Assembly (NCBI GenBank): GCA_040755315.1
Contig: JBFMBF010000003.1
Location: forward strand, 1-35,643
Length of the DNA stretch: 35,643 nucleotides
Direction: 5' to 3'
Source of the DNA: Candidatus Hadarchaeota archaeon
GTDB lineage: Archaea; Hadarchaeota; Hadarchaeia; Hadarchaeales; Hadarchaeaceae
Below, one piece after another: positions 6,120-28,766 of this stretch (position 1 is the stretch's first letter; the number at the start of each line of letters is the position of its first letter). The notes beneath the pieces are model-generated. The model saw only the letters and a list, made by a program, of their open reading frames with translations. It did not search any database and was not told the origin of the DNA. Position numbers and translations under genes: made by a program.

Positions 6120-6675
6120 CCAACTCACCTCTGAAAAACTTGATAGCGCTCTTCCTGAGTTCCGCAAGAGTCCCCTCGTTTACAATCAAATAGTCGGCGA
6201 GCGCCATGGCCTCCCCGAGTCCCCAGCTTAGCTCCCGCCTGTCCTTTGCCCTGAAACTCTCAATTCCTCGAGCGTCGTCCTCCCTGACTCTAGAAGATAT
6301 TCTGGAATGCCTAGTGGTCTCCGTCGCCCAAACGGAAATCAAGCTGAAATCTTCTCCAAAAACCTTGCGGAATTCATCGACCTCGGCAATTCCCCGGATA
6401 CCGTCGACTAGAACGGCGCGCTTGCCTTTCCCTTTTTCATTGATCAGCGGGATGCAGCGCTTGGCTATAGCCCCCATTCCGTCCTGCGCCCTGAATTCAT
6501 TCGCGACTTCCGCCACGTTCTTTTCATTTATCTTCAAGCCGCGGCGTCTGATCTCTTGCCAAACCACATCTCCCATTCTGACACTAGGGGCATCGAACTC
6601 CGCCATGGCCTTGACCACTTCTGTCTTCCCAGAGCCCTGCAGCCCAACGAGGCCTACAACTTTCAGACTAATCAC
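6076..6675 (-). CDS. UPF0200 P-loop kinase (archaeal dephospho-CoA kinase-like)
   Basis: GLQGSGKT, MGDVV, DGIR...EV, D.REL.WG.G and ADY.IVNEGT motifs. Confidence 0.85.
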   Translation of the reverse strand: MISLKVVGLVGLQGSGKTEVVKAMAEFDAPSVRMGDVVWQEIRRRGLKINEKNVAEVANEFRAQDGMGAIAKRCIPLINEKGKGKRAVLVDGIRGIAEVDEFRKVFGEDFSLISVWATETTRHSRISSRVREDDARGIESFRAKDRRELSWGLGEAMALADYLIVNEGTLAELRKSAIKFFRGELGESKGRGRGKVHRS

Positions 6676-10306: not shown

Positions 10307-10423
10307 TGGGCCCGGAGGGATTCGAACCCTCGACCGCCCGGTTATGAGCTTCGTCCAGTTTCAGCTGTCGGACGCTCTAACCTAGCTGAGCTTCCCGGCA
10401 AGCAATGGCCTGCATACGGGCCC
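10307..10423 (-). tRNA. tRNA-Ile(CAU) with two introns (9/10: 10392-10414; 30/31: 10350-10368)
   Basis: The spliced sequence GGGCCCG TA GCTC AGCTAGGTTA GAGC G TCCGG CT CAT AA CCGGG CGGTC GAGGG TTCGAAT CCCTC CGGGCCC A forms a full cloverleaf. Both introns lie in BHB motifs. The GGGCCCG acceptor and A73 favour Ile2 over Met. Confidence 0.9.
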
Positions 10424-10451
10424 TCGGGCCCGCTTGTTCATGTACTGCCGC

Positions 10452-10467
10452 AGTTAAAACATTTTTC
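10452..10467 (-). promoter_or_regulatory. BRE/TATA promoter of tRNA-Ile
   Basis: Minus strand GAAAAATG-TTTTAACT about 30 nt upstream of G1. Confidence 0.6.
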
Positions 10468-10526: not shown

Positions 10527-11102
10527 TCATCTGTACGCCCCGCCCGCCCCCCAACCATGAGGGCCGTAAAAGACAGAAACACCGTCGGTGCTGCCGTTCG
10601 GCACCAGCTCCGGCGCTATGTTGGTCCACTCTTTAATTATCATGCCGATAATGGCGATATTTTCGGTCGCTCTAGTCGTGCCAGCCACCTTAACCCTAGC
10701 GACCCAATGCCCTGAAGGTATCCCACTTATCGTGTATTCTCCAAATGAACCTACGGTGGTGGAGTAAGTATTGTTTTCTGTATCAATTTCTATAACTGCT
10801 CCTGACACCCGGTAGTTTGAAGCGGCATCTGCAAAAACATAACCTGCAAGTCCTCCAGGGCCCGGCGGAATCTGGATGGAAGTGGTTTTTGGTATCAGCT
10901 GCCAAGCGGCTATCGCGGTCACGACAATGATTATTATTGCCACGTCCCAGTAGCGACGCTTGGACTTTTGGGCGGGGGCTGGAGGCGCGGGCTTGCCGCT
11001 CGGCGGCGCGGGTCGGGGCGCGGCTGGCTGGGGAGGTGATGGCCCACCCTGCATGACTGCGGACGACGCGGCTTTCCCCGACAAAACTTGGGCGGGATTC
11101 AT
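10527..11102 (-). CDS. membrane-anchored protein: Pro-rich N-terminus, one TM helix, carboxypeptidase-regulatory-like beta-sandwich
   Basis: PSPPQPAAPRPAPP, TM VAIIIIVVTAIAAW, then G.V.D...VSGA.I.I....T...G.Y.ISGIPSG.W pattern. Confidence 0.65.
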   Translation of the reverse strand: MNPAQVLSGKAASSAVMQGGPSPPQPAAPRPAPPSGKPAPPAPAQKSKRRYWDVAIIIIVVTAIAAWQLIPKTTSIQIPPGPGGLAGYVFADAASNYRVSGAVIEIDTENNTYSTTVGSFGEYTISGIPSGHWVARVKVAGTTRATENIAIIGMIIKEWTNIAPELVPNGSTDGVSVFYGPHGWGAGGAYR

Positions 11103-15689: not shown

Positions 15690-16874
15690 TCAAAGGCTTT
15701 TGCCGCGAGCAATCACCGCCGTCCCGACCGCGGCGTAGATTGTAGTGGAAAGTATCACAACAAATGCAATGTTCTGAATCAGTTCTGCTCCAGGAACCCC
15801 GTAAGTGACCGGAATCTGAGTCAGGGCCGCGGCCACCAGCCCCTTTGTGCCCATGACTCTAATGAGATTCAGCTCCGGCTTGCTGATGAATGTTCCAACC
15901 ATGGCAAGCTGGACGGCGACCAATCTGGAAATCATCAAAGCCGCAGAGAGGACCACGCCGTAGAATAGGTATTCCATCCTTATCGTGGCGACCAGCCCCA
16001 AGTAGACGAAGAAAAACGACCTCATGGCAAATGTAATCCCTGAGTGGAACTCCAAGATGTTTGGTGGGAAGGAGTACCTTCGCTTGGTGACCTTGGAAAA
16101 GCTTCCCGCGTTTCCCAGCATGAGCCCGAAAAAAAGAATTGCAATCGCTCCGGTGCCCATCCCGAACACAAACTCGCTTCCGGAGTAAACGAGCATGGCG
16201 GCCGCGAGCGTCAAAATGAAATCAAACTTTACTCCTTTGTACTTGTTTAGAACCATCAGCCAAATCAAGCCATAAAGAGCTCCTATTGCTATCCCGACTC
16301 CAAATTCAAAAACAATCATCAGCGGGGAGGAACCCGCCCCCAAGCCAGGGATGATTGTGCCCAAGACCGCGATTGAAACTAAAATACACAAGGCGTCGTT
16401 GAACACTGACTCAAGCGACAGCAGGGAATACACCGTTTTGCCAACGCTTATCCCCCTCAGGATAGCCAGCACCGTCACGGAGCTTGTGCCGCCGAAAATC
16501 GCCCCAACCAGCAGGGCCATCTTCAGATCCAGCCCCATGGCAAGGACTCCAACAATAGCGGAAGCAACCATCGAAAAAATCAACCCCCCAACTGCTAGCA
16601 GGATGCTCCTAGAAAATGATCTAATTACTTGGGCCAGCTCCATGTTCAACCCAGAATCTAAAAGCACGATAATTAGCGTCAAAGGTGTGAGTATGGGTGC
16701 GATTGCTCTAAAGAGATCCATCCTCACAAAGCCCAGATATCCTATCAGAAGCCCGAACAGCAGGAGGATTATCACGTCTGGTACCTTCGTCTTCCTGAAA
16801 ACGAAAGCGCTTGCGTGGCCTACCAAGATGGTAAACGCCAGCAAAGCTATTGCGTTAAGGATCGGGTCAGGCAT
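15690..16874 (-). CDS. cation:proton antiporter (NhaP/CPA1-like)
   Basis: About 12-13 TM segments with KVPDVI.L...G...G, LESVFND, F..RSFFFVYLG and KGLVAAAL motifs. Confidence 0.9.
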   Translation of the reverse strand: MPDPILNAIALLAFTILVGHASAFVFRKTKVPDVIILLLFGLLIGYLGFVRMDLFRAIAPILTPLTLIIVLLDSGLNMELAQVIRSFSRSILLAVGGLIFSMVASAIVGVLAMGLDLKMALLVGAIFGGTSSVTVLAILRGISVGKTVYSLLSLESVFNDALCILVSIAVLGTIIPGLGAGSSPLMIVFEFGVGIAIGALYGLIWLMVLNKYKGVKFDFILTLAAAMLVYSGSEFVFGMGTGAIAILFFGLMLGNAGSFSKVTKRRYSFPPNILEFHSGITFAMRSFFFVYLGLVATIRMEYLFYGVVLSAALMISRLVAVQLAMVGTFISKPELNLIRVMGTKGLVAAALTQIPVTYGVPGAELIQNIAFVVILSTTIYAAVGTAVIARGKSL

Positions 16875-25191: not shown

Positions 25192-26898
25192 TTATGTCTT
25201 GGAGGCTTTCCGGGTCTTCTTCCGCCTTTTGCCCTTTGGGCGCGCGGCCTTCTTCCGGGCTTTCACGCCTTTTCCAAGCAGCTCCCTGTAAGTTTCAACT
25301 ATCGCCGATGGTCTTGCGGTGGCCATGTGTCTTTTGATAATATCTATTGATTCCGCCTGTATGCGCTGGAGTTTCTCTGGAACCATCCCCCGCCGCTCCA
25401 CCTTCCCAGCTAGCTGAAGTCTTTTCAGAGCATCCAACAGCCCGCGGCGCTCTATCTCATCCAGCCGCTTCCTGTCCGTGATGTCTACGAAAACACCTCT
25501 CATGCCAACAGTCTGGCCTGCGTGGACTATTGGGGTGAGCCGCATAAGCGCTGCAAACTTTCCGCCGTCCTTTTTGACCGCTGTGTACTCTCCGCTGACC
25601 ACGCTCTTTTCAATTCGGGCTTTCTCCATGTCCTTTCTAGCCCTTTCCCTATCACTTGGAGCCAAAAGCTGAGTCAGCTCCAAGCCTTCCTCCAAATCCT
25701 TCGGGAAATAGCCGAAAGTGTTGTACCCAGCAAGGTTGAAGAAAGCGAGCCTTCCGGTCTCGTCTGTTTCAAACACGGGCTCGGGCAGCAGGCCCATAAG
25801 GCCTTTGAACCTCCTCTCGCTATCGTGCAGTCCGGCCTCAGCCCGCTCCAGCTCAGCGACAGTTTTCTCAAGTTGGGCTGTTCTTTCACGAACCATTCTT
25901 TCGAGCTCTTCCCTGCGCGCGAACGCAATTTTCTCGTCCTCCAAAACGCCAGTTGGCAGCCCCCTCACGACTTCTGGAAAATCTTTCACTGACTTGTAAC
26001 CATCTTTCACTTCCCGATAGATGTTGCTGAACACCCTCTTCGCGAACTCTGACGAAGTTATTGCGCCGTAGAGTTCTATCAGGCGGGAATTTAGTCCTGA
26101 AAATGCGGGAGGAATTGAGCTTAGGGACCTTTTTTCATTCATTTCTGCCAAGGCCTTCAATGCCTTTTCTGTTTTCAAAAAACCTCTCTCCGTGAACTCG
26201 CAGCCTCTGAGTATCTCGTGCTCTCCAGCCGCCTGCGCCAGAGCATCTCTCATTAACCCCACGCCAGTCACAGTGGCTGCCGTGGCCGAAAACCTGCTTG
26301 TCAGGTCAGAGTAAGCGCGCAATAGCCGGAGGTCGGCCCTGAGAAGTTCCTCATCTGCCGCGCCGGCGGAAACGGCCGATGGTCGTGTGGAACGGTACAA
26401 CATCATCTCGCTTGTGATAAATGCGATAAAAAACGCGGCAAATGAAAGCTGGACAATGACGACAAAAATTTCCGGCTGGATTTCAAACCAAAAAGACAAG
26501 GCCCAGAGGGGCAACACGACGGCCAATACAATAGAGATTCCGGCCAAGCGTAGAACCCCGTAACGGAACTTTCTCAGCAATTCGGGCCAAGGCAGGCCCC
26601 CGGTAGCCTTTCTGACTGTCATCCCTGAGTGGGCCATGCCGATGAAGACGCTTGCCGCACCCAAAAGAAAAACTGAAAATGGAAGAAGCCTCGCGCCGAC
26701 AATTTGGTTTGAGAGATAGTGCTGGACGGGGAAATAAATGCTCACAACAACGAAAAGTATGACCCCGACCGCGATGGGGTATTGGGCATGAGCACCCCTC
26801 AACACGTGAACATTTCTCAACGTGTAATAAACAAGTATAATTGCCAAAATCACGTTCACAACACCGAAGAGGTTGATGGCAAGTGTATTTACATCCAT
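25192..26898 (-). CDS. membrane PAS-domain sensor protein without kinase output (paralog B)
   Basis: About 5 TM segments, helical domain, coiled coil, PAS (SERRF...LP..FETD..G...N...FGY...KKDG..F...GVFVDITDRK) and basic tail. Confidence 0.85.
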   Translation of the reverse strand: MDVNTLAINLFGVVNVILAIILVYYTLRNVHVLRGAHAQYPIAVGVILFVVVSIYFPVQHYLSNQIVGARLLPFSVFLLGAASVFIGMAHSGMTVRKATGGLPWPELLRKFRYGVLRLAGISIVLAVVLPLWALSFWFEIQPEIFVVIVQLSFAAFFIAFITSEMMLYRSTRPSAVSAGAADEELLRADLRLLRAYSDLTSRFSATAATVTGVGLMRDALAQAAGEHEILRGCEFTERGFLKTEKALKALAEMNEKRSLSSIPPAFSGLNSRLIELYGAITSSEFAKRVFSNIYREVKDGYKSVKDFPEVVRGLPTGVLEDEKIAFARREELERMVRERTAQLEKTVAELERAEAGLHDSERRFKGLMGLLPEPVFETDETGRLAFFNLAGYNTFGYFPKDLEEGLELTQLLAPSDRERARKDMEKARIEKSVVSGEYTAVKKDGGKFAALMRLTPIVHAGQTVGMRGVFVDITDRKRLDEIERRGLLDALKRLQLAGKVERRGMVPEKLQRIQAESIDIIKRHMATARPSAIVETYRELLGKGVKARKKAARPKGKRRKKTRKASKT

Positions 26899-26909
26899 CT
26901 TCCCACCTG

Positions 26910-28589
26910 TTAAAAGCGCCGCTTAGCCGCTCTTTTGCCCGCGGTCTTTTTTTGTTTCTTCATGGGTTTCACGATGTACTCCTTGTACGCCTCCACAACC
27001 GGGGCTGGCCTTTCCATTATATGTTTTTTGATGATGTCTATTGACTCGGCCTGCAGACGCTGCAGTCTTTCAGGGACTCTCCCGACCTTTTCAACTTTCT
27101 GGGCCTGCTGCAGCTTTTGCAGAACATCCACCATGCCCTGACGCTGTATCTCTTCCACTTGCTTGCGGTGTGTGATGTCAACAATTACTCCCTTTAAACT
27201 TACTGGTTCCACCTTTTTAACAAAATTCATGTAAACCAATGCAGGGAATGTGCTGCCGTCTTTCCTCATTGCCGCGCATTCCTCGCCGAGCGGTTTTTTC
27301 CCCTCGAAGAGTTTTTCAATGAACTGTTTGCACCTCTTGCATTCATTGGGAGACAAAAGCTGGAACACACTCAAACCTTTGCTCAAGTCTTCCTGAGTGT
27401 ATCCAAAAGTTTCAAACCCCGAAGGATTAACAAACGTAAGTTTTCCTGATTTGTCCATTTCAATTATTGCTACTGGCAGCAAGTTAACAAGCTCCCTGAA
27501 CCTATTTTCGCTTTCACGCAACTCTTGTTCGGCCTGCTCGAGTTCGGTAGATGTCTTTTTCAGCTCGGTTATTTTCTCAATGACTTTTTGCTCTAACTCC
27601 ACCTTGGGAGCCAGTTTTAGCTTTTCACCCTCCAGAACACCGGCCGGCATCCCATTTGCTATTACAGGAAATGTTTTCAGCGAGATGTAGCGTCCGTTCG
27701 TGTAGTTGTAAATGTTTTCAAAAGCTCGCTTAGCGACCTCGGGAGATGTGGCTCCGCTGTAAACTTCCATTAAACGTGTATTGAACGCGGCAAAAGCTGC
27801 GGATATTTTTTTAATATTTCTCTTTTCGTCAGTATTGTCCAAGGTTTTCATAGCATTGTCCACCCTCAAAAATCCATTTTCACCCAACTCACAATCGCCA
27901 AGGATCTCGTGATTTATCGAACACTGGAGAAATGCGTCTTTCAGCGGCCCGAAGCCTGTTACTAACGCCGTGGTTGCAATGAACCTGTTTGTCAGGTCTG
28001 AGTAAGCCCTGAGCAACCCGATGTCTTCCCTGAGCAGCTCTTCAGGCACAGATTCCGAAACTGTGGCTGGCGATTGCAGGGCTTTCCAATATTTGCGCTC
28101 ACCTAAGGCCAAACTCACAAACGCTAGCGCCCAAACACTAGCGTTGGCGACGCTGAGCCACGATTGGGTGCCGAGCGGCGTGAATAACGTGTCTAATAAA
28201 AATACTGGCACGCCTGCCAACACGAGAATTGTGGCGCCAAACAAAAAGAATTTGCCGTGCGGCATTTCAAGTGCCAACTTTAACCACGAATTTGAGTATA
28301 CCTTTTTGACGTCCTTTCCCCTCAGCAGCCCACCTGCCACTACCAAAGAAAGCGCAACCACCCAAGAAATGTACTGCGCGCCGATTATCCATGGACCGAA
28401 TAAGAAGTAAAATTCCGCCAGACTTATTAGCGTTGCAATTAAAAATCCAATCGCTCCGGCAGCCATTACTCGATGTCCCAACGGACCACGCATCATGCGT
28501 GCATTTTTTAAAACATAAAACGTGAACACTACCGTTGAAAGGAAAAATATGGTTCCAAAAATGTATATTGGAATTGTTATTGCGTCCAT
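26910..28589 (-). CDS. membrane PAS-domain sensor protein without kinase output (paralog A)
   Basis: Same architecture as 25192-26898. Shared motifs LLRAYSDLT.RF, HEIL..C, P.GVLE.EK and VPE.LQR.QAESIDIIK.H. Confidence 0.85.
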   Translation of the reverse strand: MDAITIPIYIFGTIFFLSTVVFTFYVLKNARMMRGPLGHRVMAAGAIGFLIATLISLAEFYFLFGPWIIGAQYISWVVALSLVVAGGLLRGKDVKKVYSNSWLKLALEMPHGKFFLFGATILVLAGVPVFLLDTLFTPLGTQSWLSVANASVWALAFVSLALGERKYWKALQSPATVSESVPEELLREDIGLLRAYSDLTNRFIATTALVTGFGPLKDAFLQCSINHEILGDCELGENGFLRVDNAMKTLDNTDEKRNIKKISAAFAAFNTRLMEVYSGATSPEVAKRAFENIYNYTNGRYISLKTFPVIANGMPAGVLEGEKLKLAPKVELEQKVIEKITELKKTSTELEQAEQELRESENRFRELVNLLPVAIIEMDKSGKLTFVNPSGFETFGYTQEDLSKGLSVFQLLSPNECKRCKQFIEKLFEGKKPLGEECAAMRKDGSTFPALVYMNFVKKVEPVSLKGVIVDITHRKQVEEIQRQGMVDVLQKLQQAQKVEKVGRVPERLQRLQAESIDIIKKHIMERPAPVVEAYKEYIVKPMKKQKKTAGKRAAKRRF

Positions 28590-28689: not shown

Positions 28690-28766
28690 TGGTGCGGCAG
28701 GCGGGATTTGAACCCGCGTTGCAGCCTTGGCAAGGCTGTGTCTTAGCCAAGCTGGACCACTGCCGC
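28690..28766 (-). tRNA. tRNA-Gly(GCC), intronless, CCA encoded
   Basis: GCGGCAG TG GTC CAGCTTGGCTAA GAC A CAGCC TT GCC AA GGCTG CAAC GCGGG TTCAAAT CCCGC CTGCCGC A CCA. Confidence 0.95.

Follow-up and report, generated by a model that had tools for sequence, protein, structure and literature searches.

How can a tRNA precursor be spliced if the splice signal of its intron is built from the very strand that the acceptor stem requires? The question is raised by a tRNA-Ile2(CAU) gene in the 35,643-nt stretch of DNA analyzed here (the window) from a Candidatus Hadarchaeota archaeon (GenBank assembly GCA_040755315.1, contig JBFMBF010000003.1, positions 1 to 35,643). Our answer, to which we attach a probability of roughly 0.7, is that the gene is functional, that its two introns are of the bulge-helix-bulge (BHB) kind spliced by EndA, and that the first of them, at position 9/10, would be made spliceable by the gene's own leader, which carries a copy of the acceptor 5' strand and could stand in for it. 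The case is made from sequence comparison and folding models.

The gene and its introns

The gene occupies 117 nt of the minus strand, from 10423 down to 10307, and is laid out as follows:

10452..10467, minus strand: promoter region resembling a B recognition element (BRE) and TATA box, from the sequence; TTTTAA at 10459-10454
10425..10431, minus strand: GGGCCCG, repeating the acceptor 5' strand in the leader and separated from G1 by 1 nt; suggested to pair with positions 66-72 as a surrogate
10415..10423, minus strand: exon 1, positions 1-9; outer helix of BHB 1 supplied by G1-G3, central helix by C4-G7
10392..10414, minus strand: intron 1, 23 nt, position 9/10; strict motif of three helices separated by two bulges (hBHBh')
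10369..10391, minus strand: exon 2, positions 10-30, D arm; from the splicing script and BHB solver
10350..10368, minus strand: intron 2, at position 30/31, 19 nt; again a strict hBHBh' motif
10307..10349, minus strand: exon 3, positions 31-73, including the T arm; from the sequence, splicing script and BHB solver
10346-10344, minus strand: anticodon CAT, within exon 3; from the sequence
10314-10308, minus strand: acceptor 3' strand, within exon 3; from the sequence
10307, minus strand: discriminator A73; CCA incompletely encoded

Scripted removal of 10414-10392 and 10368-10350 leaves 75 nt, which ARAGORN reports as a tRNA with anticodon CAT. An independent BHB solver predicts cuts at 9/10, with an outer helix of 3 bp and an inner one of 6 bp, and at 30/31, with 3 bp for each, in both cases within a strict hBHBh' motif: a 4-bp central helix and two 3-nt bulges that hold the cuts. 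With the register shifted by -3 to +3, the strict motif appeared solely in these registers, and shuffled introns formed it at their own junction in 289 of 100,000 trials for 9/10 and 80 of 100,000 for 30/31. The initial annotation, made from the sequence by itself, had placed introns at these two positions, with the cloverleaf restored upon their removal, and had warned that tRNA finders might miss the gene; it was right on both counts. ARAGORN does not detect the gene in the window, by default or with its intron option, and Rfam returns at the gene just one sub-threshold tmRNA match (23 bits versus 47).

The exons look healthy. Once spliced, they differ from four intron-free orthologues of equal length at 2-5 of the 75 positions (four further intron-free orthologues, of unequal length, were left out), and they are collinear within one 117-nt gene, unlike those of split or permuted tRNAs. 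The first four inner-helix pairs of the 9/10 intron are kept in all 19 distinct Hadarchaeota introns at this position, and three of the four show two-sided swaps. This is a real, and probably essential, tRNA-Ile2(CAU) gene, with splicing of both introns predicted.

The leader copy and folding of the precursor

BHB 1 takes up the acceptor 5' strand in its entirety, seven bases: G1-G3 pair with C11-C13 and C4-G7 with the intron. Because it uses the whole strand, it excludes the acceptor stem: one or the other can form, not both. One base upstream of G1, at 10431-10425, stands a second GGGCCCG. In folding calculations the leaderless precursor forms its all-GC acceptor stem with P=0.99 and the central helix of BHB 1 with P=0.002, whereas adding native leader raises the central helix to P=0.94 (12 nt), 0.93 (20 nt) and 0.63 (30 nt). 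At 0.3 kcal/mol above the minimum lies a fold that combines the two BHBs with the T arm and an acceptor stem built from the leader. The initial annotation held that the precursor cannot fold its acceptor stem. For the leaderless precursor matters are the other way round—the stem folds and the BHB is shut out—and the leader copy, which resolves the conflict, was overlooked. The shift is not peculiar to this gene: among 18 Hadarchaeota genes with 9/10 introns, the median probability of the central helix is 0.00 without a leader and 0.01 with shuffled leaders, but 0.74 with 15 nt of leader and 0.44 with 30 nt. We also considered whether the leader copy might be the true exon 1, followed by an earlier or nested intron, and rejected this: the first copy has no U8 after it, and the 6-8-nt spacer is too short for a BHB.

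The sequence of events that we envisage runs as follows. Transcription would start at about the leader copy, which would take the place of the acceptor strand by pairing with positions 66-72. G1-G7 would thereby be left free, and both BHBs could form together. EndA, of the homotetramer type, would cut out the introns and RtcB would join the exons. The true acceptor strand would then displace the leader copy, and RNase P would cut at G1; this hand-back would have to rest on tertiary folding and on RNase P cleavage itself. Finally TiaS would modify C34, enabling the tRNA to read AUA. The copy probably arose by duplication of exon 1, and would have been kept by selection for its role in folding.

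Comparisons within Hadarchaeota

If the copy serves the 9/10 intron, the two should come and go together. We give counts in what follows, not significance, as the relatives are not independent. Among the Hadarchaeota Ile(CAU) genes examined, all 10 that have the 9/10 intron carry the leader copy and none of the 25 lacking the intron does, and both states, with and without the intron, are found inside genera g1, g7 and g8. Searched phylum-wide, the 9/10 pattern occurs at 24 places in 20 of 66 genomes; four of these places are not tRNAs and were left out, and the remaining 20 are tRNA genes (10 Ile and 10 Lys, in 16 genomes), every one with a copy. Leaders able to form at least six contiguous pairs with positions 66-72 precede all 18 intron genes compared, versus 3 of the 79 controls. 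Where copies vary, they do so largely by C-to-T changes that preserve G-U pairs.

A neighboring position behaves in the same way. Introns at 8/9 are found in 19 of the 66 genomes, in genes with a different acceptor stem (mostly Asn), and 19 of 19 such genes carry a copy of their own acceptor strand, versus 0 of 9 controls. This genome has further examples of both kinds: a tRNA-Lys(CUU) gene (C21:12430-12548, plus strand) that has its intron at 9/10 and a leader copy of 6 nt, and a tRNA-Asn(GUU) gene (C5:3011-3158, plus strand) with an 8/9 intron, the leader of which pairs with the acceptor strand, the discriminator and CCA.

Distribution beyond Hadarchaeota

Nor is position 9/10 a one-off: it recurs across many uncultured archaea. 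One exact pattern, for a single acceptor type, was run over 185,579 GTDB genomes and gave 104 matches, of which 67 are tRNAs with 9/10 introns (64 recognized by script, and three with T-loop inserts by eye); the other 37 (35 bacterial, two archaeal) were discarded, being ordinary tRNAs or matches by chance. Among the 67, a surrogate leader of this kind predominates, and in some the leader lengthens the BHB helix. The 67 belong mainly to Bathyarchaeia (39), Hadarchaeota (11), Micrarchaeota (4), Thermofilaceae (3) and Aenigmarchaeota (3), with two from Methanomethylicia, two unclassified, and one each from Nitrosothermus, Altiarchaeota and Woesearchaeota. Viral contigs gave 0 matches to the 9/10 pattern. 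In Bathyarchaeia a duplex between leader and 3' end of -14 kcal/mol or stronger is predicted for 37 of the 39 genes, versus 8 of 27 controls (those resolved out of 30 loci). In many Bathyarchaeia Arg(UCU) genes the leader binds the 3' strand of the T stem as well and sits ~10 nt upstream, an arrangement that simple duplication would not give.

A scan of metagenomes returned at least 120 loci; seven had too short a flank, and merging of duplicates left 101 distinct genes. Among the matches listed, and with thresholds chosen after the data were seen, 76 of the 101 lie at or below -14 kcal/mol, and 17 of the other 25 have leaders that extend the outer helix of the BHB. This second leader design binds the D stem and loop in place of the 3' acceptor strand; besides the 17 metagenome loci, such as L304 and L382, it occurs at L045, L053, L064, L065, L046 and L068. 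Different leader designs that have the same effect on folding favor a function for the leader over a scar left by intron gain.

Several points weigh on the other side, the late choice of thresholds and the relatedness of the genomes among them. The complete strict motif, with its bulges open, has a probability of only 0.07 at 37°C, and of 0.013-0.005 at 60-75°C. Out of 100 shuffled leaders, the best outdid the native one, although the median cost was 4.25 kcal/mol for shuffled leaders versus 1.65 for the native. When the precursor is spliced in silico, pairing with the leader is still favored, the true acceptor stem having P ~0.001, and the true and surrogate cloverleaves lie within 0.5 kcal/mol of each other; secondary structure therefore does not explain the hand-back. 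The same folding model gives no full cloverleaf even for the mature tRNA. With 30-nt leaders, P exceeds 0.5 in just 16 of the 39 Bathyarchaeia genes and in none of the three from Thermofilaceae. Eight of the 101 metagenome genes, among the matches listed, have neither kind of helper, and the Micrarchaeota genes with 9/10 introns show no clear leader helper either: Arg(CCU) genes of this helper-less, Micrarchaeota type are found at L070, L094, L102 and L115. In the one genome of this type that was checked, EndA is a multi-unit protein of 385 aa.

Promoter spacing and the origin of the copy

Where did the copy come from? The distance to the promoter offers a clue. TATA-like boxes could be scored for 54 of 82 intron-free controls, 13 of 19 9/10 genes and 12 of 19 8/9 genes. 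In controls the box stands a median of 29.5 nt before G1. For 9/10 genes the distance is 35 nt to G1 and 28 nt to the copy, and for 8/9 genes 38 nt and 29 nt (medians). In the gene discussed here, 27 nt separate the box from the copy, inside the range of TATA-to-G1 distances among controls. It is the copy, then, that stands at the ancestral place of G1 relative to TATA and, to judge by this spacing, it should be transcribed. Boxes of the Hadarchaeota control tRNA genes lie mostly 27-31 nt before G1; the pre-tRNA leaders of these organisms, this suggests, are very short despite the presence of RNase P RNA.

Other traces of the event survive. One 8/9 gene, L210, repeats its 8-nt exon 1 exactly and in tandem; one 9/10 gene retains a 9-nt offset; and the Lys(CUU) orthologues have a common flank right up to the copy. 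All this fits insertion of exon 1 and intron as one unit, the spacer drifting later, and is compatible with subsequent selection on the copy. One might go further and suppose that 8/9 and 9/10 introns regularly arrive as such a unit behind the resident exon 1, so that the old 5' strand becomes an instant surrogate. The copy would then be the footprint of intron gain, whether through a cleavage intermediate that starts at G1 or through gene conversion anchored on the copy, and the whole would be a self-enabling cassette, mobile among tRNAs with the same acceptor (Ile, Lys, Arg). We offer this tentatively, and with more doubt than conviction.

The same traces can be read to mean that the copy is nothing but a scar: exon 1 was duplicated when the intron was gained, the duplicate is neutral, and splicing relies on co-transcriptional folding. 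The last would be possible because BHB 1 is local to the 5' end and would form before the 3' strand of the acceptor has been made. The promoter medians, the tandem repeat in L210 and the Lys(CUU) flanks all suit this explanation, as do the Micrarchaeota genes that show no clear helper. It does not suit the conservation of the copy, which persists while flanks and intron loops diverge, nor the leaders of Bathyarchaeia Arg genes, which mimic acceptor plus T stem, nor the second class of leaders, which pair with the D arm; neither of these two is a duplication of exon 1. We consider a neutral scar unlikely.

Alternatively, the surrogate pairing might serve mainly to order processing, by providing a stand-in stem for RNase P, RNase Z or the CCA enzyme, or by masking the 3' end, which would spare an unspliced precursor from being trimmed at G1 and locked, the BHB folding independently of the leader. 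RNase P RNA is present, many leaders pair with the discriminator and CCA too, and the accessible text of PMC3695527 reports that Methanopyrus kandleri trims tRNA ends before introns are removed. Against this, complementarity to NCCA just upstream of G1 is found in some intron-free genes of this genome as well, the copy in the Ile2 gene ends at position 72, and the shift in folding arises without any enzyme. As the principal role of the copy we think it improbable, but an effect on processing order and a surrogate strand are not mutually exclusive.

Identity and decoding role

The surrogate-strand reading presupposes a gene worth splicing. ARAGORN names any tRNA with a CAT anticodon Met, and so identity must be argued from the body of the molecule. 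The other CAU genes found in the genome, which is 87% complete, look like initiator (iMet) and elongator (eMet) methionine tRNAs, each separate from the Ile2 gene, and the acceptor stem, T arm and A73 of the latter are the same as in the genome's Ile(GAU) gene, on contig C22. We take C4-G69, U12-A23 and C29-G41 to be the identity elements of Ile2. With an Ile-like acceptor and A73, a body distinct from iMet and eMet, and TiaS encoded in the genome, the Ile2(CAU) identity first given to the gene stands. It is also the only Ile(CAU) gene among those found, and not a pseudogene beside an intact copy.

ATA accounts for 5469 of 15,745 Ile codons in long six-frame open reading frames (ORFs), and neither a second Ile(CAU) gene nor a UAU anticodon arm was found in the 87%-complete genome. 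Given these facts and the presence of TiaS, the gene is most likely the sole decoder of AUA, and as such would have to be spliced. That it is instead decayed or unspliced, and AUA is read by a different tRNA on an unassembled part of the incomplete genome, is very improbable in view of its intact exons, the intron helix compensated in 19 of 19 relatives, the lack of another Ile(CAU) or UAU arm among the sequences found, and TiaS.

The suggestion that C34, the target of TiaS, is sequestered until splicing fared less evenly. In the second BHB C34 is indeed paired, with G22, but of control over TiaS we see no sign, and we dropped that idea: the arrangement is unconserved, an orthologue from the same genus (G002) having a 37/38 intron and not one at 30/31, and several orthologues being intron-free.

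The methionine genes have peculiarities of their own. The eMet-like gene (C12:13004-13123, plus strand) has an imperfect 3' acceptor strand, and the iMet-like gene (C9:30725, minus strand) a T-loop insert. Val(CAC) is present twice (C17:24581-24665 and C25:1-85), with identical upstream flanks.

Processing enzymes

The genome encodes TiaS, RtcB, RNase P RNA and EndA; no match to HARP was found in it. EndA is a single unit of 177 aa that aligns end to end with the homotetrameric enzyme of Methanocaldococcus jannaschii (1A79). No second homologue is present in the genome: the profile used includes beta subunits, and the next match has E=0.54. EndA is thus of the alpha4 (homotetramer) type by sequence criteria, with one 177-aa single-subunit gene and no beta-like second gene; the initial annotation had asked for this typing. 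Among 66 Hadarchaeota genomes searched, 59 have any PF01974 match, and 56 of these have just one. The alignment shows no N-terminal insert of the L1/L2 type. The insert that precedes the catalytic His in one Aenigmarchaeota enzyme and one Micrarchaeota enzyme is absent, too; PMC5829648, in the text accessible to us, reports an L3 insert in Hadesarchaea.

Several introns of this genome, at 15/16, 20a/21, 20b/21 and 22/23 in tRNA genes on contigs C1, C4, C13, C19 and C22, seem to miss the outer helix, albeit by low-confidence parses, yet EndA (C30:4392-4649) has no evident specificity loop. Motifs without an outer helix are usually credited to EndA enzymes that bear such a loop. In view of these introns, we abandoned the argument that an alpha4 EndA requires a strict BHB.

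Relation to known systems

Non-canonical and multiple BHB introns are well known in archaeal tRNAs, having been described in Thermoproteales, Caldiarchaeum, ARMAN-2 and Asgard archaea (PMC4090602, PMC3239211, PMC3293823, PMC11291895 and bioRxiv 10.64898/2026.10.13.758758, each as far as its text was accessible). The introns described here resemble them in being short, presumably protein-spliced, of 3-4-3 BHB form, present two to a gene, and in genes that annotators miss. Positions named in the accessible part of PMC4090602 are 3/4, 20/21, 22/23, 25/26, 29/30, 30/31, 45/46, 53/54, 56/57 and 59/60, 'etc.'. Position 30/31 is thus listed, whereas 8/9 and 9/10 fall outside this list, and here the BHB uses the whole acceptor 5' strand, with a copy in the leader. 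In Hadesarchaea, the same lineage as ours, a single-subunit, alpha4 EndA has been linked to increased tRNA disruption, with many non-canonical and multiple introns (PMC5829648); the accessible text of that paper gives no intron positions or leader features. The novelty first claimed for the gene must be trimmed accordingly: multiple introns and position 30/31 were known, and 9/10, unnamed in these sources, is what stands.

Two known arrangements come close. In the 3/4 intron of certain Thermoproteales, cited in the portion of PMC4090602 available to us, the splice motif likewise competes with the acceptor stem; to judge from its geometry that motif must borrow leader bases for its own helix, whereas here the motif is all exon and intron, and the leader binds the far 3' strand. 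In split and permuted tRNAs (PMC3218864 and PMC4033280, in the parts accessible), flanks outside the mature tRNA likewise pair to set up a BHB, but they pair mutually and form part of the BHB being cut; in the present gene the leader stays outside the BHB and would serve as a stand-in strand in cis.

A literature search turned up no paper on 9/10 introns or on a surrogate leader; its coverage excluded GtRNAdb, SPLITSdb, Marck and Grosjean 2003, Sugahara 2008 and several supplements, and the string '9/10' itself cannot be searched. Intron-span strings that start at 9 or 10 are absent from that part of the tRNAscan-SE 2.0 supplement which lists version differences. The 2026 Asgard preprint (bioRxiv 10.64898/2026.10.13.758758), in its accessible text, does not mention 'leader' and calls the route by which introns arrive open. 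The intron richness of Hadarchaeota was known already, then; what seems new is position 9/10 together with a putative cis-acting leader device, which we could not find in print in the literature searched.

Other observations

Four tRNA-like elements in this genome have a T arm but no acceptor partner (C13:~6350-6465, C24:~10772-10900, C5:~40230-40345 and C25:~16560-16668). They resemble the gene at C17:13263-13349, and are probably tRNA-derived repeats or pseudogenes. An odd tRNA-like gene lies at C8:3377-3474 (minus strand), and its anticodon-arm region is repeated ~75 nt upstream. In the window itself, a tandem pair of ORFs (568 and 559 aa; 25192-28589, minus strand), each with a PAS domain, adjoins a tRNA-Gly(GCC) gene at 28690-28766.

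Significance

If our reading is correct, the leader of a pre-tRNA would be more than a stub to be discarded: it would be a built-in folding chaperone, one that allows an intron to exist where splice signal and acceptor stem exclude each other, and the rule on which sites archaeal introns can occupy lastingly would widen. Splicing would precede the final RNase P cut, opposite to the order reported for M. kandleri in the accessible text of PMC3695527; that order, end trimming before splicing, would by our reasoning trap a 9/10 precursor that lacks the copy. Promoter spacing would provide a testable trace of tRNA intron gain. And 'missing' essential tRNAs, here the decoder of AUA, would be explained in several uncultured phyla.
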